A DNA stretch of 64,000 nucleotides from a virus. The position numbers and the translations under genes were made by a program. Shown here in pieces: positions 34,690 through 62,730 of the stretch. The notes beneath the pieces are model-generated. The model did not search any database. It had not been told where the DNA came from and was given only the letters and a program-made list of their open reading frames with translations. Position 1 is the first letter of the stretch. Each line of letters begins with the position of its first letter. Location: IMG/VR virus record IMGVR_UViG_3300048915_000089, positions 1-64,000 of that record; one strand, written 5' to 3'.

Positions 34690-34718
34690 CCCCGCCTTCA
34701 GGCGGGGTTTTTCTTTTT
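34690..34718 (+). terminator. Rho-independent terminator of plus block iii
   Basis: CCCCGCC (34690-34696), loop TTCA, GGCGGGG (34701-34707), then TTTTTCTTTTT. The loop contains the stop codon of the convergent ParB-MTase gene. Confidence 0.7.
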
Positions 34719-36230
34719 GAAGATCACGATCACTTCGCCGTCCTCGCTCAGCGTCTTGTTGTAATTGTTAATCATGCCGGTGCCGCGCGTCTCGGCATAT
34801 TCGAGGCCGCATGTACCGGCGATCTCTTTCGCCGTCGACTCCAATGGATGCGTTTGATTGCCGATCTGCAACGCGAAGCTCGCGCTTGGCTTCAGCGCTC
34901 GCGCTACCGATTGGATCATCGGCGCATAAAATCCAGCCACCCATTTGTCGAAGTCCGGATAGAGCTTCCACGAACTCTCGTCGCCGCCGTACTTCTCAGT
35001 GTTGAAATACGGCGGGCTCGTCATGGCGAAATCGATCGATGCCGATTTCGGCTTGGCGCGTTCGAACGGCTCGCAAACAAGCTGAGCCGTCTTGTCGAAT
35101 GCGGCCAGCTTGCGGAGATCGCGGTACATGTCGTTAACGCCGCGATACGTCTTCGGGTCAACGTCATATCCGGTGTAGTGGCTCACGTTCTTTGCGAGCA
35201 GGAAGCCGAGCATGCGGCCGCCCCACCCATGGCACGGATCAAGCACGCTCGCGCCTGGCGTCGTGCAGAACTCGTCGTAAAGCGAGCGCGCGAGATCAAC
35301 TGGAAACTCACCCGGCAATCTGTGCCGATGAATCGCGAGCGTTTGGCCAAGCATCTTGTCCAGCTTCGGCTGGCCTTGGCATAGGAACATGAGCGACTTG
35401 ATAAACTCGTCGCGCCGGCCGCACGTCGCCAGAAAGTCGCTGAGCGACCCTTGCGTGTCGCCGTTGATGTCGACGCGGTGCGGCGTATAGGCCAGGGTGG
35501 CGGCAGACGGAATGCTGTTGCCGTAGAATCGCGCGCGCAGAAAGTAAACGGCGAGCGCGCCCTTCGTGTAGCTCGTCGAAACGAAGCCGAGAGACTCGCG
35601 CTTCGCCAAGATCCCGGTCCACTCTTTTGTCATCACTCGCCAGGCGCTCAGCAACACCGCCAGTTCGGCTTCGGTGAGATCGCGATCCTGTGCGCCGTCA
35701 CCGCCGGCCGGCGCTTGCGCCGTCTTGCCGTCGCCAAGGCCGGAGACGAATTCAACAAGTTCAAGCTCCGGAAAGCCGAGCAAGTCGAGATCGAAATTCA
35801 GCTTCTTCAATTCGACGACTTGGCCCTTCAAGATCGCTTCGTCCCATCCGGCCGTCAACGCGATCTGATTATCGGCGATCACGATCGCCATCTTGTCGGC
35901 GTCGGACAAGCCGGCGCGAACGACGACAGGCACTTCGTCGAGCCCGAGCAACATCGCCGCTTCGGCGCGGCCGTGACCGGCGAGAATCATATCGTGCTCG
36001 TCAATCAACATCGGCTGGGTGAAGCCGAATGTCTTGATAAGCTTCGCGAGCGTTTCGATCTGCGCTTGATCGTGCGTCCGCGGGTTGTTCGGATACGGTT
36101 TTAGCTCTGAGAGTTTGCGCCGCTCAGTCGGCCCCGCCATCCAGATCGCGAGGGACTTCGCGCCGTCCGACCACTCCGCAGTTTGAATCTGCACGGCTTT
36201 ACTTTTTGCAGCTTTGTCGGCTGAAGGCAT
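34698..36230 (-). CDS. ParB N-terminal domain fused to SAM-dependent DNA methyltransferase (N6-A/N4-C type)
   Basis: ParB segment LKPYPNNPRTHDQAQIETLAKLIKTFGFTQPMLIDEHDMILAGHGR. MTase motif I VLDPCHGWGGR and motif IV AMTSPPYFN. Confidence 0.85.
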   Translation of the reverse strand: MPSADKAAKSKAVQIQTAEWSDGAKSLAIWMAGPTERRKLSELKPYPNNPRTHDQAQIETLAKLIKTFGFTQPMLIDEHDMILAGHGRAEAAMLLGLDEVPVVVRAGLSDADKMAIVIADNQIALTAGWDEAILKGQVVELKKLNFDLDLLGFPELELVEFVSGLGDGKTAQAPAGGDGAQDRDLTEAELAVLLSAWRVMTKEWTGILAKRESLGFVSTSYTKGALAVYFLRARFYGNSIPSAATLAYTPHRVDINGDTQGSLSDFLATCGRRDEFIKSLMFLCQGQPKLDKMLGQTLAIHRHRLPGEFPVDLARSLYDEFCTTPGASVLDPCHGWGGRMLGFLLAKNVSHYTGYDVDPKTYRGVNDMYRDLRKLAAFDKTAQLVCEPFERAKPKSASIDFAMTSPPYFNTEKYGGDESSWKLYPDFDKWVAGFYAPMIQSVARALKPSASFALQIGNQTHPLESTAKEIAGTCGLEYAETRGTGMINNYNKTLSEDGEVIVIFKKKNPA

Positions 36231-45321: not shown

Positions 45322-46156
45322 CTTCTTCGCCTTCGTCAAGATCAAAGTCGCCCTGCCGATCGATAACATCGAGCATCGCCGAATAGCTTGGCCGATCGGC
45401 ACGGAAGAGGGCCATTTCGGGAGCGCGCATTGTGCCGCGAGCTACCGCTTCGACTTCTTGCTTTGCCCACCAACAACCCGACTGCGGGCGTCGGCGCAGA
45501 AGACCCATGATCGTCGCTTTCGCTTTCAAAAAACACAGATCGCAATTACCCTCCGGCGTGCGGCCCCTGACATTCTCTAGCCGCAAGTCGAAATTCTGTT
45601 CACGCCAGAAATCCGAAACGGTTTGCTTCGTCGCCCTGGCCAGATCGAGCGGCATAATTGTTCGCCACAGATCCTTGCCGGCCGCATTTCGTTTCAGTTG
45701 TTTCTTAACGCGATGCTGCTCGTCATGCCGCAAGCCAACGACGCTCTGCCAATGCTGCCAGCCGAGATGGTGGACGGCGTACTCTCTGAAGCGTCTAATC
45801 TTTAGTTCGATTGTGCAGAACCTCATCACCGGGTTCGGGAGCATTTGTTTCGCGCGCAGCAACGCTTCGAACGGCTCGCCATTGCGGCTTGCGGTTTTGT
45901 AAGACACGATCGCCGTTCTTTGCGGCGCGTCCGGAGAGTATTCCAGCCAAACGATCTCAACGCCCCATCGCTCAGAAACCTCGTTAACGAAGTCGAGCGA
46001 CTCGCTGCGCTCCTTTCCGGTGTTGGCAAACACGACAACGATGTTCGCCGGCAACGTGCCGCGGTGCGCGTTGATGATTTGCTTCAGCAAGTAGCCGGAC
46101 GTTCTGCCTCCGCTGAAGCTTATCAGCGCAGGCCCTTCGAACAGGTATGGGTTCAT
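45293..46156 (-). CDS. PAPS-reductase-like PP-loop ATP pyrophosphatase (phage 'PAPS reductase'/DndC-like family)
   Basis: PP-loop ISFSGGRTSGYL, RFCTIELKI, GNCDLCFLK. ATGA overlap with the upstream MTase stop. Confidence 0.8.
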   Translation of the reverse strand: MNPYLFEGPALISFSGGRTSGYLLKQIINAHRGTLPANIVVVFANTGKERSESLDFVNEVSERWGVEIVWLEYSPDAPQRTAIVSYKTASRNGEPFEALLRAKQMLPNPVMRFCTIELKIRRFREYAVHHLGWQHWQSVVGLRHDEQHRVKKQLKRNAAGKDLWRTIMPLDLARATKQTVSDFWREQNFDLRLENVRGRTPEGNCDLCFLKAKATIMGLLRRRPQSGCWWAKQEVEAVARGTMRAPEMALFRADRPSYSAMLDVIDRQGDFDLDEGEEDDGDCACTD

Positions 46157-47157
46157 CTTCGCTTCCCAAGCCGACGCCGCGCCATGCGGCAGTATTCCGC
46201 GTTGATGTCAATGCCGATGCAATCGCGCCCGAGTTCGTTCGCGACGACGCCCGTCGTTCCGGAGCCGAAGAACGGATCAATCACCAAGCCGCCGCGCGGA
46301 CATCCGGCGAGTATCATCGGACGAATCAAAGCGGGCGGATAAGTCGCGAAGTGAGCGCCGTTGAATCCCGTCGTCGGCACGGTCCAAACCGATCGCGGAT
46401 GGCGCATTTCACGGATTGCGCGGAACGACTGTTCCGGATCGATCGGCCGGCGTTGCACAACGCCGCGCTTGCCGCCGCGCGTGCCCTTGGCTTCTTCAGC
46501 CCACCCGCAGCCAGGCGCGTACTTCGCCGGCTCTTTGATCGCGTCCATGTCATAGTAGTAATGCGGGGACTTCGAAAACACGTAAACGGTTTCGTGTGCT
46601 GGCGTTGTCCGATCGCGCGCGCTCGATGGTGTTGGGTTCGACTTTTTCCAGATAATCTCGTCGCGCAGAAACCAGCCTGCGGCTTGTAAGGCCAGCGCGA
46701 GCCGCGCCGGAATGAGCAAGCGTTGCTTTAGCCGATACGAATCGCCGATGACAATCCACAAAGTGCCGTCGTCGCGCAACACGCGATAAGCGCCAGCGAA
46801 CACGTCGACGAGCTCACTCACGTATTCGTCTGGCGCTTCTTCCATTCCGATCTGAGTATTGACGGCGACAGCATCGCAGCGCCGGCAACGACCTTGCGGC
46901 CGTAGCCACTGCGCAGCGGCGCCTTGGCGTTGATGCTTGCCGGAGCCGGTCAAGCTGCTGCCTATCTCGCGCGCTTTGTACCAGCGTTCGTCTGGCCGAT
47001 GATCGCAGTCCGGCCGGCCGCCGACCCATTTCGACGTCCCATAATCACGCTTGCGGAAGTAGGGCGGCGAAGTCATGAACATGTGCGCCGTCCGCGGTGC
47101 CAACCTGCGGAGCTCTTTGCGACTGTCGCCAGTGATAATCTCGCAGCCCACGGTCAT
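46153..47157 (-). CDS. Beta-class DNA methyltransferase (N6-adenine or N4-cytosine) with Cys-containing insertion
   Basis: Motif IV MTSPPYF near the N-terminus, motif I VIDPFFGSGTTGVVA near the C-terminus. Insertion CDHRPD...RCRRCDA...QIGMEEAPDEYV. Confidence 0.85.
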   Translation of the reverse strand: MTVGCEIITGDSRKELRRLAPRTAHMFMTSPPYFRKRDYGTSKWVGGRPDCDHRPDERWYKAREIGSSLTGSGKHQRQGAAAQWLRPQGRCRRCDAVAVNTQIGMEEAPDEYVSELVDVFAGAYRVLRDDGTLWIVIGDSYRLKQRLLIPARLALALQAAGWFLRDEIIWKKSNPTPSSARDRTTPAHETVYVFSKSPHYYYDMDAIKEPAKYAPGCGWAEEAKGTRGGKRGVVQRRPIDPEQSFRAIREMRHPRSVWTVPTTGFNGAHFATYPPALIRPMILAGCPRGGLVIDPFFGSGTTGVVANELGRDCIGIDINAEYCRMARRRLGKRR

Positions 47158-52592: not shown

Positions 52593-53189
52593 TTATGCCG
52601 CCTTGTCGAATTTCGCTATCTCGTCACCCCACGCAAGCCAGCCACGCCGACTCTCTCTGCTAAATACATCTGCGCGCCGCCATCCGGGCGTCAATCCACC
52701 AATCAAGTCGAACCACTCTTGCGGCTTGCGCGAATGCTCGCGCGCGATGCCGTCAAGGCCAAGCTGATCGAATGTCTCAATGAGATTGTAAGCGCGTCCG
52801 CGAGCTCGCAGCTTGTGGCCCTTCAGCGTACAGATCAAAAACGGCTCGCACACCGACCTGAAAATAAACCCGGTGCCTGGCCGAAGCTTGCCGGTCACCG
52901 TGCGCTTTGCCCACGCGCCGCCTGTGACGACTTTCAAGCCCCATGCATTCTCCGCAATCAAATGCTGCTGCCCGATCAGCGGCCATGTACACCACATGCC
53001 GAGGACGCCTTCCGGCGCGAGCAGTTCGGCAACCGGCAGCGCCGCGATCTGCGCGAGCGACATCGTTTTATATTTTGCGTTCGCCGACTTCTTCTCGCCC
53101 TGCGATGTACGCGAGACCCATTTCCAGGGACAATCGATCGATACAAAGTCCAAGCCGTATCGCGGCAACGGATCAAAATAAAACATCAA
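52593..53189 (-). CDS. MT-A70 family N6-adenine DNA methyltransferase
   Basis: Catalytic motif DCPW (DPPW variant), KYKTMSLAQIAALPV, MWCTWP, AWGLKVVTGGAWAK. Confidence 0.8.
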   Translation of the reverse strand: MMFYFDPLPRYGLDFVSIDCPWKWVSRTSQGEKKSANAKYKTMSLAQIAALPVAELLAPEGVLGMWCTWPLIGQQHLIAENAWGLKVVTGGAWAKRTVTGKLRPGTGFIFRSVCEPFLICTLKGHKLRARGRAYNLIETFDQLGLDGIAREHSRKPQEWFDLIGGLTPGWRRADVFSRESRRGWLAWGDEIAKFDKAA

Positions 53190-54626: not shown

Positions 54627-55147
54627 TTTAGATCCTCGCAAAAGAATGTTGACCGAACCCAGCGAGTCAGAGGGCCTTCGTTCCCGCTGGGTCCGGCCGT
54701 TATCCGCAACCCTTGCCTGGCGGCACGGCGCGAATGCGAATTCTGTTTTGTCAAAGATCGGCCCTCTCTGAGTCGTGAACGTAAACGACAACAGCAGGGC
54801 GGAGCAATGGGAGAAATTTTCAAGTTCCAGATCGCTGAGCGCGCTCGCGCGCGTCTCAGTTATATACACAGAAAGAAGTCGCGCGTGCCGCGCTCCTTTT
54901 GTGTCTGGCCGCACACTGTAACGCCGCGCGCGAGCCGACTCGATAGAAACCCGCAAAAGGGCTGTCAACGGATACGGGAGACAGAACAAAGCGGATACAG
55001 ATACATCCTGAGAGCGTTCTTATTGAAAAAACAGCAGAATCCCGGCGTTCCGATTTATTTCTAAGGCTTGCAACCATTCAACCTGTGATCTATACGTCTT
55101 GCCAGGCGGGCCGCTTCGGCCGCGCCGTTTTGCAGAGGAAAGATGCA
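54627..55147. promoter_or_regulatory. Divergent early control region (~520 bp, non-coding)
   Basis: Contains an imperfect inverted repeat GAGTCAGAGGGCC (~54664) / GGCCCTCTCTGAGTC (~54760). Also a palindrome CTGAGCGCGC..GCGCGTCTCAG (~54835-54860), AT-rich TTATATACAC, and three GATACA-type repeats (54970-55008) like those at 44371-44420. Confidence 0.5.
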
Positions 55148-56032
55148 ATGCACACCATCAATCAGACTTACGGAAAACGCGCGCGCTTCGACATCGATCG
55201 CGGTATGACCGAAGACGAGATTCGCAAGGCCGCGCCGTCTGTCTTCGCCGTGACGGCGCACGACAGCCGCAGCGAACGCTTCCAGCCGATCCCGACGATC
55301 GAAGTGCTGCGCGGCTTGCGGAAGGAAGGCTTTGAAGTCGTCGGCGCGCGCCAGTCGACGACGCGAGTCGACGGCAAAGAGAACTTCACGAAGCATCTGA
55401 TACGTCTCCGGCGCATGGATAACGTCGAAGCGTACAAGGTCGGCGATACGGTCGCCGAAATGCTGCTGAAGAATGCGAACGACGGCACGTCCGTTTACGA
55501 TCTCTTCGCCGGACTGTTCCGCATTCGTTGCTTGAACAGCATGGTGACCGATCTCGGCTCAATCGACAGCGTGAAAGTCCGGCACACTGGCCGCGACATT
55601 CAGGATCGTGTCATTGAAGGCACGTTCACTGTCATGGAAAAGGCGAAGCTCGCGCTCGCCGCTCCGCAGGACTGGTCAACTGTCGAATTGAACCGCGACG
55701 AACGCATGGCGTTCGCGGAAGCCGCACACGTTCTCCGCTTTGCCGACGCCGAAGGCAACGTCGACACGCCAATCAAGCCGGAGCAACTGCTGCAGGTGCG
55801 CCGCGCTGATGATAACGAGCGCAATCTCTGGACTGACTTCAATGTCGTTCAAGAGAACGTCATTCGCGGCGGGCTGAAGGGCCGCGTTCCGGCGACGGGT
55901 GGCGGAACGCGCCGCATGTCGACTCGCGGCATCAACGGCATTGACCAAGACGTGCGCTTGAACAAAGCGCTTTGGGTGCTTGGCCAGCGGATGGCCGCGC
56001 TGAAGGGTGTCGAAGTCAAGACTGCCGCCTAA
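55148..56032 (+). CDS. DUF932 domain protein
   Basis: ATG preceded by AGAGGAAAGA. FQPIPTIEVLRGLRKEGFEVV... pattern and ~295 aa size are typical of DUF932. Confidence 0.65.
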   Translation: MHTINQTYGKRARFDIDRGMTEDEIRKAAPSVFAVTAHDSRSERFQPIPTIEVLRGLRKEGFEVVGARQSTTRVDGKENFTKHLIRLRRMDNVEAYKVGDTVAEMLLKNANDGTSVYDLFAGLFRIRCLNSMVTDLGSIDSVKVRHTGRDIQDRVIEGTFTVMEKAKLALAAPQDWSTVELNRDERMAFAEAAHVLRFADAEGNVDTPIKPEQLLQVRRADDNERNLWTDFNVVQENVIRGGLKGRVPATGGGTRRMSTRGINGIDQDVRLNKALWVLGQRMAALKGVEVKTAA

Positions 56033-56986: not shown

Positions 56987-57110
56987 GCTTCTGACGATCG
57001 CCCGCGACGAGCTTCGGCTTGTCGCGGCAACGCCCCTGCAATCATTGATCGCCTATGCTGCGCTCGCGCTCATAGCCGCTGTTGCGTTTGGATTTTTGCC
57101 ATCGAATTGA
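56979..57110 (+). CDS. 43-aa ORF with C-terminal TM helix (not in ORF track)
   Basis: Hand translation gives MRELLTIARDELRLVAATPLQSLIAYAALALIAAVAFGFLPSN. Overlaps the previous stop. Confidence 0.3.
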   Translation: MRELLTIARDELRLVAATPLQSLIAYAALALIAAVAFGFLPSN

Positions 57111-57145
57111 ATTCACCATCAACCCGTCAAACTGGAGGAAAGACA

Positions 57146-58426
57146 GTGAAAGACAAGGTAGACGTCAACCCCGACAATGCGAAGTTCATTGAGCTTCGCA
57201 CGACGAATTATAAAAAGGTAAAGGCGTTTCGCGTTCGGCCGGACGGTGCCGGCGTCATCAAGATTATCGGCGACAACGATCAAGGCAAGACGAGCGCGAT
57301 CGAATCGCTCGCCGCCGTACTTGGCGGGCCGGACTTCACGCCGAAGAACCCCATCCGCAAAGGCCAGAACGAAGCCGAAGTGTTTGCCGATCTCGGCGTG
57401 CTGCGCGCTACTCGCACATGGAAGCGGCGCGAAGACAAGACGATCGCGATGACTCTCGCGGTTGAATTCGCCGACGGATCAAAGCCGAGCAAAAAGCAGA
57501 GTGTGCTTGACGAGCTTCGCGGCACTGATCTTGCGGCCGACCCGTTGGAATTCGCCTACATGCCGGCGAAAGCGCAGTTCGATATTCTGAAGGCGCTTGT
57601 GCCAGGCATCGATTTTGACGACGTGGCGCGCAGGCGTAAGGAGCTTTTCGACGACAGGACGCAAGCTGGCCGCGATCGCGATCGCGAAAAAGGCGCCGCC
57701 GACGCAATCGTTGTGCCGCAAGGCACGCCGCTGCAGCTTGTCGAGTCGACGGCGCTCGTCGCGCAGATAAGTGCTGGCGCAAACATGAACACGGCGATCG
57801 ATCGTGAGCGCGAACGGCGCGCGGCTGTCGAAGCTTCGGCCGAAGCCAAACTGAACGAAGCCGACGAATTGATGATACGCGCGCGCACCCTGGAAGCTGA
57901 AGCGAAACGCTTACGCGACAGCTTGGCCAGTCTGCCGCCGTTAGGAACGCCGGTTGATCTCTCCGAACTCGAGGAGAGAATCGCGAACGCCGACGCGACA
58001 AACGAAAACGTTCGGTTGCTGCAGCGTCAGGATGCGCATCGAGCCGCCGCGAAGGATGCGAGCCGCATATACGACGATCTGACAAGGCAGATCGAAGAGC
58101 TTGACGCGGCAAAAAACAAAGCGATTGAACAAGCGAAATTGCCGGTCAAGGGCATGTCGTTTGGCGACGACGAGATACTAATGAACGGCGAGCCGTTCAC
58201 CGAAGCGTCGCAAGCGCAAAAGATCATGGTGTCGATGGCTGTCGCGATGGCGCTGAAGCCGAAGCTTCGCGTGATCTCAATCAAAGATGGCTCGCTCCTA
58301 GATGCGAAGAGCATGAAGATCGTCGCCGAGATGGCCGTCAAAAACGACTTCGTTGTTTTGCTTGAACGCGTCGCCGTTGATGGCGAGCGCGACGGCATCA
58401 TTATCGAAAATGGGGAGATGGTTTGA
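57146..58426 (+). CDS. SMC/Rad50/RecF-like AAA ATPase (recombination/repair type)
   Basis: GTG at 57146 preceded by GGAGGAAAGA. Walker A GDNDQGKTS, long central coiled coil, C-terminal LRVISIKDGSLLD (Walker B/D-loop). Confidence 0.75.
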   Translation: MKDKVDVNPDNAKFIELRTTNYKKVKAFRVRPDGAGVIKIIGDNDQGKTSAIESLAAVLGGPDFTPKNPIRKGQNEAEVFADLGVLRATRTWKRREDKTIAMTLAVEFADGSKPSKKQSVLDELRGTDLAADPLEFAYMPAKAQFDILKALVPGIDFDDVARRRKELFDDRTQAGRDRDREKGAADAIVVPQGTPLQLVESTALVAQISAGANMNTAIDRERERRAAVEASAEAKLNEADELMIRARTLEAEAKRLRDSLASLPPLGTPVDLSELEERIANADATNENVRLLQRQDAHRAAAKDASRIYDDLTRQIEELDAAKNKAIEQAKLPVKGMSFGDDEILMNGEPFTEASQAQKIMVSMAVAMALKPKLRVISIKDGSLLDAKSMKIVAEMAVKNDFVVLLERVAVDGERDGIIIENGEMV

Positions 58427-58608: not shown

Positions 58609-58853
58609 CGAGCGAGCTTCGCCGGCTCGCGATCGTCGCGTCTACCACAACGCCTGGGCTGCGATGCCGCGTATGCGGCTCGCGATGGCCGTTCGCTACA
58701 CCGCACGGCCCCAAGCTTGAACAGCACACTTCCGATTGTCTTATCAGAGAGAGCTCGCCAGATGTCAAAGCAACCCGCAGGAAAGTTTCACCTATACCCC
58801 ACAGACGCGCCGTTTCTCGAAAGGATACCGGGACGATTCCGGCGAGCGCTTGA
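58584..58853 (+). CDS. Possible small Zn-finger protein
   Basis: Contains CRVCGSRW...H...H..C. Overlaps both neighbours; the tail looks non-coding. Confidence 0.3.
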   Translation: MPSLQAQLTSELRRLAIVASTTTPGLRCRVCGSRWPFATPHGPKLEQHTSDCLIRESSPDVKATRRKVSPIPHRRAVSRKDTGTIPASA

Positions 58854-59022
58854 AGCGATCGATGCGGACGGCCTCAGTTATGTCGACGCCGCGAAGAAAC
58901 TGACGGACGCCGGACGCGGCGTTGTTCACGTCGGCACGGTCAAGAGCCGCGTTCACCGCGCGCGCATGCGCATTCTGGCGATGCGCGAAGCTACTGCAGC
59001 GACGGAAGGGGCGAAGCCATGA
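58762..59022 (+). CDS. Sigma-70 region-4-only (ECF sigma r4.2 HTH-like) protein
   Basis: LERIPGRFRRALEAIDADGLSYVDAAKKL...GTVKSRVHRARMRIL is the canonical region 4 signature. No region 2 is present. Confidence 0.6.
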   Translation: MSKQPAGKFHLYPTDAPFLERIPGRFRRALEAIDADGLSYVDAAKKLTDAGRGVVHVGTVKSRVHRARMRILAMREATAATEGAKP

Positions 59023-59573: not shown

Positions 59574-59745
59574 TGAAGACGACGCAACGGCTGCAGCTTT
59601 CGAGAGCTACATCAAAATGCGGTTTCCTCCGGACGATCGGCCGGAGAAAGACAGCCCGCGATGGCGCGACTTGCGATCGGCGTTCATGGCCGGCGCTCGT
59701 TTCGGCGTCGAAGCGATGGTTGAAGGTTGCACCGACCATGGCTGA
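59563..59745 (+). CDS. Hypothetical small acidic protein
   Basis: Overlapping start and stop with both neighbours. Confidence 0.45.
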   Translation: MADNEDDATAAAFESYIKMRFPPDDRPEKDSPRWRDLRSAFMAGARFGVEAMVEGCTDHG

Positions 59746-59956
59746 GCTCACAGAAACCGAATTGCGCCGCGCCAAAGACTTCGCGGACGCAATAGCCGAT
59801 CTGATCGGCGCTGAGCACCCGAGCATGCAACTGACGGTCCTTACGTTGGTTGCCGGCTCAGTCCTTTGCGCCAGCGTTTTTTCCGAGGACCGGCTTCCGG
59901 CTCTCGAAAAACATACGGATTATCTGCGCAAAAAGATTATGGAGAGCTTGGGGTGA
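59738..59956 (+). CDS. Hypothetical small protein
   Basis: ATG at 59738 overlapping the previous stop. Confidence 0.5.
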   Translation: MAELTETELRRAKDFADAIADLIGAEHPSMQLTVLTLVAGSVLCASVFSEDRLPALEKHTDYLRKKIMESLG

Positions 59957-60798
59957 AAAAGCGCGACGTGATCTTGAACACTGAAGCACACCGGCCGGCG
60001 TTCAATTCGTTCGCTGAGCACCTTGACGCTATTGAGCGCCGCGAGGGACTTCGGCCTGGCGAGATACTGAATCAGTGGCTTGAATTCTCTTATCGCGCTC
60101 AGCGCGCGGCGATCTTGAAGCTCGCCGGCAATGACGACGAGCTCGCCAAAAACGAAGCGGATTATATGCGCGGCGTCGCCAGACTCCGGCACAAGCAAGA
60201 GACAATGGCCGATTACGGATCAATGCTGGGCGCGCTTGTTCTGGCGCTCGAAGCCGACGACTGCGATTTTATCGGTCCCGTATTCTCAGCGCTGTCGGCG
60301 AGTGCTGGCATGGGGCAGTTCTTTACACCCTGGAGTCTATCGAAAGCGGCGGCAATGCTGATTATGCCGGAGTCGCGCGAAGCGTGCGCGGCACTCGCCG
60401 ACAGCGGCGCCCTATGGTGCCATGAGCCCGCGGCCGGCGTCGGCGGAATGATACTCGCGACAAATCAGATCCTTCGCGAACGCGGCTTCTCTCTGCACCG
60501 CGACGTTCATTGGATCGCTTTTGAAGTCGACTTCCGCGCAATGTGCGGCGCGTATCTGCAGTTAAATCTCACCGGCTCGTCTGCCGTCGTGACGCACGGC
60601 AATACGCTGTCGCTTGAAGCATGGCAGACGACGCCGACGCTTACGGCCGTTATGTATCCGAAGCGCAAGCCGGAGCGCGTCAAGCTTGAAATGGTCATTG
60701 AGTCGGCGAAACCCGAAGAGAGGATCGAACGTGGCAAAACGAGCGCAGTCAAAGTTTCCCGCGAAGTTCGTCGTCGTCAACGTGCGCCAGCCGGTTAA
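59953..60798 (+). CDS. HsdM/N6_Mtase-like SAM-binding protein lacking catalytic motif IV and any TRD
   Basis: GTGA overlap at the start. GQFFTPWSLSK (60313...), HEPAAGVGGM, AFEVDFRAMCGAYLQLNL and THGNTLS align with EcoKI HsdM. At the NPPF position the sequence is MYPKRK (60652...). The protein ends about 45 aa later. Confidence 0.65.
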   Translation: MKKRDVILNTEAHRPAFNSFAEHLDAIERREGLRPGEILNQWLEFSYRAQRAAILKLAGNDDELAKNEADYMRGVARLRHKQETMADYGSMLGALVLALEADDCDFIGPVFSALSASAGMGQFFTPWSLSKAAAMLIMPESREACAALADSGALWCHEPAAGVGGMILATNQILRERGFSLHRDVHWIAFEVDFRAMCGAYLQLNLTGSSAVVTHGNTLSLEAWQTTPTLTAVMYPKRKPERVKLEMVIESAKPEERIERGKTSAVKVSREVRRRQRAPAG

Positions 60799-61123
60799 GC
60801 GGCTAAAGAATGATGGCGACATTTGCCGCGTCTGCGGCTGCAGCGAGCACAACGCTTGCGAGCTCACAATGCGGCCGGCGAAGTGGCGCGGCGTCGGACA
60901 AATGATAAGCATCGGATGCTCTTGGGTGAGAAGGGAGCCGGATAGCCCGCCGCTTTGTTCGGCTTGCTCCGGCACCGCCGGCGATCTGCGCGAAGCATGC
61001 GCGCGCCTGGTCACGATTCTTGAAGATCACGCCGCCCATGACTTCGGGCGGTCCATAGCACGCGCCGCTGTGGCGCGCTTCGATAGGAGGAAGAAAGAAC
61101 ATGACCGGATCGCCGAAGCCTAA
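60731..61123 (+). CDS. Cys-rich (CxxCGC...C...C.W...CSAC) phage protein
   Basis: GTG at 60731 with RBS GAGAGGA. Contains CRVCGCSEHNAC...IGCSW...PLCSACS. Confidence 0.45.
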   Translation: MAKRAQSKFPAKFVVVNVRQPVKRLKNDGDICRVCGCSEHNACELTMRPAKWRGVGQMISIGCSWVRREPDSPPLCSACSGTAGDLREACARLVTILEDHAAHDFGRSIARAAVARFDRRKKEHDRIAEA

Positions 61124-61653: not shown

Positions 61654-62730
61654 ATGCCAGCTACCGCCCCGAAGACGCCCGCGCCAGTTATCAAGTGGCC
61701 GGAAAATATGCTGCCAGACGGCATCTACCTTGGCCTTGACGAAGACACGTACCACAATGACCCGGCGCTGGGCTCGTCGGATATCCGATCGCTGCTCAAA
61801 GGCGCCAACCGATATTGGCAACGATCGTGGATGAACCCGAAGCGGCCGGCGGAAAAGCTCACGCCGTCGAAAATCTTCGGCAAGGCAATGCACAAACTGT
61901 TGCTTGAAGGCCGCGAGCCGTTCCGCTGCATATACGTTCGCCGGCCGGATGACAGCGACGACGCGTCGCCATCGGAAAAGTCGAAGCTCACAAAAGCAAT
62001 GAACGACAAATTGCTTGAAGGACAGTTTTTGCTGAAGGCCCCGGAGTTCGACTTTATCGAAGACGTGAAGCTGATTATCGATGCCGACCCGGAGTTGAAT
62101 GGCTGTCTCGACAACGCACTGACTGAGGTGTCTGTTTTCTGGACTCGCAAAGACGGCACGCGATTGAAGTGTCGCTTCGATGCTTTGAAGCTGCGCGGCT
62201 ATGGCGACCTGAAATCGATCGCCAACGAACGCGATCGTGAGATGGGCGAAGCTTGCCGACAGCAGATCGTCACATACCGATACGACATGCAGATCGAACA
62301 TTACAACGAAGGGCGCTACATGCTGCCCAAGCTTTACGATCTCGGGCACGTCTTCGTTGGGACAACGCACTTCACCCACGCGAGCGTCGCCAAAAATACC
62401 GCCGTCAAAAACGCTCACAAGTTCCTCGGCGAGATCGCGCACTACGTCCCCGAGAATGCCGACGAGCCGGCATTCGCCGCGCAATTCGTCTTCGTGCCGA
62501 AGCTTGGCAACGATAACGTCGCGACGCAAGCGCCGGACGCGTGGTCAACGACGATCTCGCCGGAAAATCCGATCTTGAAAATCTCGCGCGACGACATTGA
62601 GACGGCGCTTATGATGCATCGCGACGCGCTGAAGAAATACGGCACGCAACTGCGCTGGTTGCCTGGCCGTGTCGTGAGCGAGCTCGACATAAGCGAGCTT
62701 CCTTGGGGACTGAGCAAGCGGGCCGCGTGA
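61654..62730 (+). CDS. PD-(D/E)XK exonuclease (RecE / exonuclease VIII-like)
   Basis: YHNDPALGSSDIRSLL...FGKAMHKLLLEG, CRFDAL...YGDLKSI, MQIEHY (QxxxY). RBS GGAGAA. Confidence 0.75.
   Translation: MPATAPKTPAPVIKWPENMLPDGIYLGLDEDTYHNDPALGSSDIRSLLKGANRYWQRSWMNPKRPAEKLTPSKIFGKAMHKLLLEGREPFRCIYVRRPDDSDDASPSEKSKLTKAMNDKLLEGQFLLKAPEFDFIEDVKLIIDADPELNGCLDNALTEVSVFWTRKDGTRLKCRFDALKLRGYGDLKSIANERDREMGEACRQQIVTYRYDMQIEHYNEGRYMLPKLYDLGHVFVGTTHFTHASVAKNTAVKNAHKFLGEIAHYVPENADEPAFAAQFVFVPKLGNDNVATQAPDAWSTTISPENPILKISRDDIETALMMHRDALKKYGTQLRWLPGRVVSELDISELPWGLSKRAA

Follow-up and report, generated by a model that had tools for sequence, protein, structure and literature searches.

Analysis of a 64,000-nucleotide (nt) stretch of viral DNA (positions 1 to 64,000 of IMG/VR record IMGVR_UViG_3300048915_000089, hereafter the window) indicated that a gene in its early block encodes only part of a DNA methylase. 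The open reading frame (ORF) at 59953-60798 on the + strand (846 nt, 281 aa, GTG start, stop codon at 60796-60798) specifies the S-adenosylmethionine (AdoMet or SAM)-binding half of a gamma-class HsdM-type N6-adenine methyltransferase (MTase), joined to a family-specific helical bundle. This half-MTase lacks motifs IV-VIII, the remainder of the Rossmann sheet and all DNA-recognition elements, and therefore cannot methylate DNA alone. Judged from conservation among its relatives, the non-catalytic architecture is under purifying selection and is not that of a decayed MTase. This form is typical of a very large family, whose members occur in the early blocks of phages and in the leading regions of plasmids and integrative and conjugative elements (ICEs).

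The gene was defined by the ORF map, the gene call and a match to phrog_5696 (E 1.5e-29) in which residues 14-235 of the window protein covered profile positions 17-226 of 250; as the match is near full-length, the protein is by sequence a member of that family. Gene calling on an independent contig of 59 kb, and on another that is short, returned the same protein with the same boundaries. Its start codon shares the sequence GTGA with the stop of a small upstream ORF (72 aa, 59738-59956, + strand), an overlap that suggests translational coupling of the half-MTase. All database names for its relatives were generic ('N-6 DNA methylase', 'SAM-dependent methyltransferase' or 'hypothetical'). An NCBIfam search with the window protein gave no match, a single-sequence phmmer search with it against the PDB gave nothing meaningful, and a published characterization of the family was not found in the literature.

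Motif register and predicted structure

The positions of the MTase motifs were established with EcoKI hsdM from E. coli K-12 as the reference. The segment DFIGPVF (residues 105-111) is followed by motif X, GQFFTP (residues 121-126, nt 60313-60330), the two spanning 60265-60330 on the + strand in alignment with EcoKI, EcoR124II and M.BseCI; GQFFTP begins at residue 121 in the window protein and its counterpart GQYFTP at residue 147 in EcoKI HsdM. Motif I, EPAAGVGGM (residues 158-166, 60424-60450, + strand), is the Gly-rich AdoMet loop after strand beta1, with PAAG at 159 in the window protein and at 174 in EcoKI HsdM. The motif II region, FEVD (residues 190-193, 60520-60531, + strand), lies at the acidic end of strand beta2, and motif III, HGNTLS (residues 215-220, 60595-60612, + strand), at the end of strand beta3, where it matches EcoKI GNTLG (GNTL at 216 and 247, respectively).

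At the position of motif IV the window protein has a conserved non-catalytic replacement, YPKR (residues 235-238, 60655-60666, + strand), which begins at residue 235, compared with 266 for NPPF in EcoKI HsdM. The distance from GNTL to this position is 19 residues in both proteins, and YPKR therefore substitutes for NPPF in exact register. The register of motifs III and IV was set by this direct comparison of positions, as hhalign of the family profile with EcoKI HsdM had reached residues 102-174 only (motifs X-I). A first-pass annotation, made by eye from the letters of the window, had paired GQFFTP, EPAAGVGGM and GNTLS with their EcoKI HsdM counterparts and had proposed the exchange of NPPF for YPKR. 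All three pairs were present when positions were compared, and the exchange was borne out by the equal spacing. That annotation had also remarked on the lack of an HsdS-interaction helix or target recognition domain (TRD); the helix is indeed absent, but the second part of the remark does not apply, TRDs being part of HsdS.

The homology to the HsdM fold that had been suggested earlier was supported alike by Pfam, by the family profile against the PDB and by Foldseek. In the Pfam search the window copy matched N6_Mtase (PF02384) over profile positions 21-130 of 311 (E 4.8e-4), at a score of 20.0 bits, below the gathering cut-off of 20.4. The same profile was matched by 114/114 aligned relatives at E<=0.01 (best E 2.6e-13), and PF02384 is listed for most relatives in precomputed Pfam assignments; sampled long members passed the cut-off at 23-36 bits, in every case through the N-terminal third of the profile alone. 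Searched against the PDB, the family profile identified M.BseCI, EcoR124II HsdM and PacII M at E 4.7e-7 to 8.6e-5, in matches that always spanned the region from motif X to motif I, and the best label for the half-MTase from the PADLOC models was type I MTase. With the Pfam threshold relaxed to E<=10, the window protein matched N6_Mtase alone, with no similarity to ArdA, ArdB/KlcA, ArdC, Ocr or SAM lyases, and HsdM_N was matched by 0/114 members.

An AlphaFold2 (AF2) model of the window protein, built on the 114-sequence alignment, had a mean predicted local distance difference test score (pLDDT) of 88.4 and a predicted template modeling score (pTM) of 0.83. It consists of an N-terminal four-helix bundle (residues 11-101, 59983-60255, + strand; pLDDT 96-99) followed by the GQFFTP loop, strands beta1 (154-158), beta2 (185-191) and beta3 (211-217), a fourth, hairpin strand (222-228) and a short helix. 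The ordered part of the model stops near residue 240, with residues 241-281 disordered (pLDDT 42-52). A complete seven-stranded Rossmann fold with motifs V-VIII was not found, the model having four strands. The top ranks of the Foldseek search against the PDB were held by lmo1582, PacII M, the HsdM proteins of S. thermophilus and V. vulnificus, DrdV and M.BseCI, the last of which superposed on the model at 2.4 Å over 105 columns, and a fold search of BFVD returned viral adenine MTases. Both searches produced MTases only, with no anti-restriction family or SAM lyase fold. The bundle, which is specific to the family and includes a conserved NExxYM (E68, Y71), was also modeled alone (pLDDT 95.8); a Foldseek search of the PDB with it yielded nothing significant (best E 0.63), and HsdM was not among the matches.

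The half-MTase is thus like HsdM (PF02384; EcoKI, EcoR124I) in having DxxGxxF(E), motif X, motif I of the form (D/E)PAxGxGG, an acidic motif II and motif III, with the EcoKI spacing. It is unlike HsdM in that it stops at motif IV, without motifs V-VIII, the C-terminal HsdS-binding helices or a detectable HsdM_N, and in that it is carried on mobile elements with no hsdS or hsdR neighbors.

Family conservation, C-terminal modules and mobile-element context

A word-indexed search identified 120 relatives, nearly all of 240-300 aa. An exhaustive profile search over 1.84 billion representatives yielded 2,067 clusters (50% identity) at E<=1e-30 and 4,626 at E<=1e-10, with lengths mostly of 240-340 aa in the best 150 clusters, and there were 302 relatives in IMG/VR. 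Motif IV was found in register in 0/254 full-length database members and in 0/79 complete ORFs from viral contigs. The sole (N/D/S)PP(F/Y/W) sequence among the 254 members, a DPPW in the member P0191, was rejected as a motif IV, being only 5 residues after motif III and out of register.

The positions under YPKR in the 114-sequence alignment are occupied by F, G, Y or H, then P (70 sequences) or G (14), then K (70) or W (35), then R or K, and two replacement motifs occur at the site across the family, [FYH]PK[RK] and GGW. The clade of the window protein has an aromatic residue followed by P236 in 21/23 members, K237 in 23/23 and R in 16/23. The cofactor-binding motifs are also conserved: G121, Q122, F124 and T125 of motif X are invariant in the 114 sequences, as are P159 and G162 of motif I and G216 of motif III, and G164 is invariant or nearly so. 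E158 was present in 112/114 sequences and N217 in 107/114, and the motif II positions were acidic (position 191, D in 109/114 and E in 5/114; position 193, D in 100 and E in 9). The first-pass annotation had taken NPPF or NPPY in homologues as the mark of a decayed MTase, and conservation of the degenerate motif as the mark of selection; the former was seen in register in neither set of relatives, and the latter is evident at P236 and K237. The conserved degenerate site, together with the lack of motif IV in relatives, indicates that the half-MTase is a selected form.

Most relatives end in QLSLF, QLELF, QLTLF, QLDLF, QLNLF or hexapeptides such as QLGFDF, placed at the C-terminus or a few residues from it. 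The sequence QL[S/D]LF or QLxLxL is reportedly the consensus beta-sliding-clamp-binding motif (CBM), as attributed to Dalrymple et al. 2001. A strict match to the motif was present in the last 12 residues of 144/254 members (57%), compared with 1.2 expected from shuffled tails. Shuffled tails were used as the control instead of whole-protein counts because the clamp expression also matches a conserved internal helix, IQLSLLG. Among the 70 closest relatives of the window protein the motif was found in 58/70 (83%), and the linker before it had a median length of 20 residues and was 26% Pro. In having a QL[SD]LF or QLxLxL-type motif after a flexible linker, the relatives resemble bacterial clamp-binding proteins such as Pol II/IV/V, Hda, MutS and TrfA of RK2. 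Clamp-tethered DNA methylation is represented in eukaryotes by DNMT1 with PCNA; in that system the tethered domain methylates, whereas the half-MTase domain cannot, and DnaN binding by the relatives is predicted from their motif.

The window copy is among the minority of the family without the clamp motif. Its C-terminus reads ...SREVRRRQRAPAG and belongs to a disordered, basic tail (residues 241-281, 60673-60795, + strand) whose 3' end overlaps a possible downstream ORF. This tail is unique, with a lower GC content at third codon positions (GC3), and no homologue of it was found in 90 loci.

Another module associated with the family is ArdC. ArdC of R388 is an anti-restriction protein composed of a single-stranded DNA (ssDNA)-binding N-domain and a metalloprotease, and it is required in the recipient to overcome type I hsdRMS (PMC7213743). 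A fusion protein of 651 aa (P0247) contains an ArdC N-domain (PF08401, E 1.1e-13), an ArdC protease region and a C-terminal half-MTase. The whole length of this protein aligns to phrog_23459 (E 6.6e-189) and its ArdC portion to phrog_7245, 'anti-restriction protein'; such fusions are present in several Pectobacterium species (P0247 / L095 566-2521). Both phrog_23459 and phrog_5696 are PHROGs families without functional annotation, and the window copy is without the ArdC module of the former. The HExxH of ArdC (HELVH) aligns to --LIR in the fusion, a loss that has probably inactivated the protease; judged by sequence, neither of the enzyme-derived modules in the Pectobacterium fusion therefore looks catalytically active. 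There was also a weak CbtA_toxin-like match between the two modules of P0247.

Separate ArdC genes were found close to the half-MTase gene in several elements. In Skermanella pSR-4 the two are adjacent on the same strand beside a MobF relaxase, in SGI4 ArdC is two genes upstream on the same strand with a DUF1281 gene between, and in a K. michiganensis plasmid and a Leisingera plasmid both lie within one tblastn place of ~2.8 kb. ArdC and the half-MTase thus share the leading or establishment-region niche as fused or adjacent genes, which suggests that they act in a shared pathway. No sequence or fold similarity was detected between ArdC and the window half-MTase. Further fusions join the half-MTase to PcfK or DUF968; PcfK takes its name from a gene on pCF10, a conjugative plasmid of Enterococcus. 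A low-GC member of 450 aa (P0184) has a C-terminal PcfK-like domain (PF14058, E 3e-13) and ends in the clamp-like QVSIF.

A tblastn search of PLSDB placed half-MTase relatives in 1,800-2,200 records, about two-thirds of them conjugative (1,513 conjugative ones where the total exceeded 2,200), with Klebsiella, Enterobacter, Acinetobacter and Pseudomonas as the predominant hosts. The leading region of pKpQIL has the order ssb, ParB, psiB, psiA, half-MTase, DUF932 and then the SLT/traM (oriT) end. In P. aeruginosa pF061_1 (L001) a PRTRC cassette (ParB, B, C, E and a ThiF-family gene) lies a few kb upstream of the half-MTase, and in Paracoccus pPZ03 (L002) a ThiF-family gene alone was nearby. The 90%-identity cluster of the 227-aa SGI4 half-MTase also lists a 456-aa 'SPI-7-type island replicative DNA helicase', which may be a clustering artefact or reflect a shared stretch.

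The distribution bears on how leading-region genes are annotated. In a survey of plasmid leading regions, orphan MTases are described as common and are treated as one functional group (PMC11541004). The supplementary gene-family table of the same source lists an 'N-6 DNA methylase / type I R-M methyltransferase subunit' family, which may be the half-MTase family. The half-MTase family has its location and database label in common with these orphan MTases, which protect incoming DNA by methylation; it differs from them in having no catalytic half, and so its annotation as 'N-6 DNA methylase' is probably wrong. If this is true, phages, ICEs and conjugative plasmids of clinical importance carry thousands of genes that are not methylases despite the label 'N-6 DNA methylase' or 'type I R-M methyltransferase subunit', and counts of orphan MTases in leading regions would be distorted by them.

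Proposed function and alternatives

We tentatively favor the view, which we hold to be a little short of an even chance, that the half-MTase is a non-catalytic SAM-binding factor for establishment or counter-restriction on incoming or nascent DNA. The sequence evidence behind it would translate into the following mechanism. The protein may still bind SAM or S-adenosylhomocysteine (SAH), as its invariant pocket residues suggest, and it would act stoichiometrically, soon after DNA has entered the cell, on DNA that is incoming or freshly replicated. In most relatives the clamp motif on its Pro-rich linker would deliver the domain to such DNA, and in the Pectobacterium/prophage lineage the N-terminal ArdC ssDNA-binding module would be the delivery device instead. 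The delivered half-MTase would then interfere with, or redirect, SAM-dependent HsdM-type restriction-modification (R-M) machinery. In the window copy, where the basic disordered tail replaces the clamp motif, the protein would act untethered, or else via the tail or another contact.

An anti-restriction or establishment role fits the position of the gene in plasmid leading regions and its fusion or adjacency to ArdC. There is also precedent for a regulatory pseudo-MTase. DNMT3L with DNMT3A and METTL14 with METTL3 are catalytically inactive MTase paralogues that regulate active enzymes; like the half-MTase, they have an MTase fold with catalytic motifs lost, and they act by protein contacts. 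They differ from it in being eukaryotic and in keeping the whole fold, whereas the half-MTase has half the fold deleted and no partner MTase was identified.

Several observations weigh against this proposal. The bundle resembles no known HsdM domain or other structure, so that no specific target can be named, and the HsdS-binding elements of HsdM are missing. A clamp motif (QLxLF) was not found in the window tail in any frame, the case of a frameshift included, and many enterobacterial plasmid members (pKpQIL, SGI4) have neither clamp motif nor ArdC fusion. The linkage to ArdC is limited to some plasmid, ICE and prophage lineages: an ArdC gene was near the half-MTase in 0/80 viral loci, and none is present in the window. 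Finally, clustering of 1,415 neighbor ORFs from 90 loci revealed no universal neighbor or partner gene.

The half-MTase family may represent a new anti-restriction mechanism. A broader claim, that clamp- or ArdC-delivered SAM-binding pseudo-MTases form a new and widespread class that disables or redirects type I, type III or BREX-like systems, is one that we consider possible, though on balance unlikely; if it is true, the class spans thousands of protein clusters and is represented in the leading region of pKpQIL-type Klebsiella resistance plasmids. A conserved pseudo-enzyme with a cofactor pocket, often wired to the clamp or to ArdC, is a testable candidate for a step in the establishment of incoming DNA, and experimentally accessible carriers exist in pKpQIL, in Faecalibacterium phage FP_Taranis (gp23) and in Vibrio phages.

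Of the alternatives, the one that survives best, although we consider it unlikely, is a clamp-directed modulator of replication or repair that is unrelated to restriction and in which the MTase-derived domain is a scaffold or SAM sensor. Its targets during establishment could be complementary-strand synthesis, mismatch repair, translesion synthesis or Hda/DnaA control. The canonical C-terminal CBM of most relatives and the replication and recombination genes around the family (ERF/YqaJ, SSB, DnaD, exonuclease VIII) are in keeping with such a role, and other mobile-element proteins are reported to use the clamp, among them MuC of phage Mu (bioRxiv 10.1101/2025.01.04.631326). However, the window copy and many plasmid members have no CBM, whereas the residues of the SAM pocket are conserved without exception. 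The clamp motif being variable and the pocket invariant, clamp binding is therefore not the conserved core activity.

The first-pass annotation had read the gene as an HsdM-type fragment with SAM motifs kept and motif IV lost, which the results uphold, and had proposed that it is a subunit decoy, for which the HsdS/HsdR-contact elements are absent. In its strict form the decoy reading holds that the fragment replaces HsdM in M2S1/R2M2S1 (or PglX/DrmMI) as a dominant-negative poison. Type I M subunits are indeed its closest relatives in both sequence and fold, and the family is found in anti-defense neighborhoods and is linked to ArdC, which counters hsdRMS (PMC7213743). We nevertheless regard this reading as rather improbable, given that the C-terminal catalytic half and the HsdS-binding C-terminal helices are absent, that no similarity of the bundle to HsdM_N was detectable by Pfam, hhalign or Foldseek, and that a single generic fragment would need to fit very diverse host HsdM partners.

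It is very unlikely that the protein is a genuine MTase, be it a split-enzyme half that obtains motifs IV-VIII and target recognition from a partner or an enzyme whose active site is unconventional. In favor of this reading, conservation of the SAM-binding motifs is strict, databases label the family N-6 DNA methylase, and orphan MTases are common in leading regions (PMC11541004). No conserved adjacent partner gene was found in the 90 loci, however, and a search for a partner with the catalytic half among window ORFs with (N/D/S)PP(F/Y/W) turned up nothing beyond a tail protein and two MTases that are complete. Clades differ at the motif IV site, which has K in some and W in others, so there is no common catalytic residue, and AF2 predicts a closed, confident domain. 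The other MTases of the window, in turn, are complete, with their own motifs: an SPPY N4/N6-type MTase (46153-47157), a ParB-MTase fusion (34698-36230) and a small MT-A70 protein (52593-53189), all on the - strand and all apparently complete. As the phage has true MTases with SPPY motifs, the half-MTase is not its protective methylase.

A SAM sponge, which would lower free SAM and starve SAM-dependent restriction or BREX with an outcome like that of the T3 SAMase, is highly improbable. The SAM pocket is conserved, and SAM depletion is reportedly a proven anti-type-I and anti-BREX strategy (bioRxiv 10.1101/2023.02.27.530186). Yet binding would be stoichiometric, with no turnover chemistry, which would be implausible against abundant cellular SAM; a bulk sponge would have no use for a tether to the clamp or to ssDNA, and there is no similarity to known SAM lyases or hydrolases. 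Lastly, a decayed or truncated MTase pseudogene in the window phage, to which the Pfam score just below the gathering cut-off and the unique tail with lower GC3 might point, is refuted by family-wide conservation, with the length and architecture recurring in thousands of clusters with invariant residues; an identical protein on two independent contigs, a start that appears translationally coupled and a confident fold also speak against it.

Gene neighborhood of the half-MTase

The window derives from a tailed phage, as it encodes a terminase, portal, tape measure, tail proteins and a primase-helicase. The half-MTase is part of a co-directional early block with the order DUF932, DUF6166, AAA_23/SbcC-like ATPase, sigma-70 region 4 protein, two unknown ORFs and half-MTase, followed by an XRE helix-turn-helix protein and then a PDDEXK/exonuclease VIII-like gene. 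The DUF932 gene (55085-56032, + strand) is the first of the block, and the ATPase (57107-58426, + strand; 439 aa), two genes upstream of the sigma protein, matches phrog_1499 (E 5e-76), for which no function is assigned. The early-type setting with a sigma region 4 protein and recombination genes, which had been part of the initial annotation, was recovered in the Sigma70_r4_2 protein at 58717-59022 and the exonuclease VIII-like gene at 61654-62730. A scan for promoters and terminators gave counts at or below shuffle expectation. The phage appears to be heavily invested in real methylation, with three apparently complete MTases beside the dead half-MTase.

A Cys-rich ORF of 113 aa (CRVCGCSEHNAC...CSWV...CSACSG) lies at 60782-61123 on the + strand, its GTG inside the last 17 nt of the half-MTase gene. 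It had no Pfam or PHROG match and no homologue in the 90 fetched loci, and it fills a 300-nt stretch left without a gene call on the twin contig (L009).

Close relatives adjoin ERF/YqaJ recombination genes, and gp23 of FP_Taranis is situated among SSB, DnaD, RuvC and ParB genes. By tblastn, the co-occurrence of ArdC, DUF932, SSB and ParB with the half-MTase was sporadic. DUF932 and the half-MTase travel together in the phage and in pKpQIL, where DUF932 is immediately downstream; the phage DUF932 (55085-56032) and that of pKpQIL (L003 10510-11331) are 39% identical over 271 aa. The commonest neighbor across the 90 loci was a tyrosine integrase, confined to a gut-phage subclade. In a 222-aa subclade from metagenomic viral contigs (L031, L038, L043, L050-L053, L056, L059-L061, L065, L073-L075 and others) a conserved YPKERVxYTPAxxGxLI end replaces the clamp motif, and in 32 IMG/VR loci a tyrosine recombinase of ~337 aa lies within 6 kb of the half-MTase on the same strand, usually downstream.

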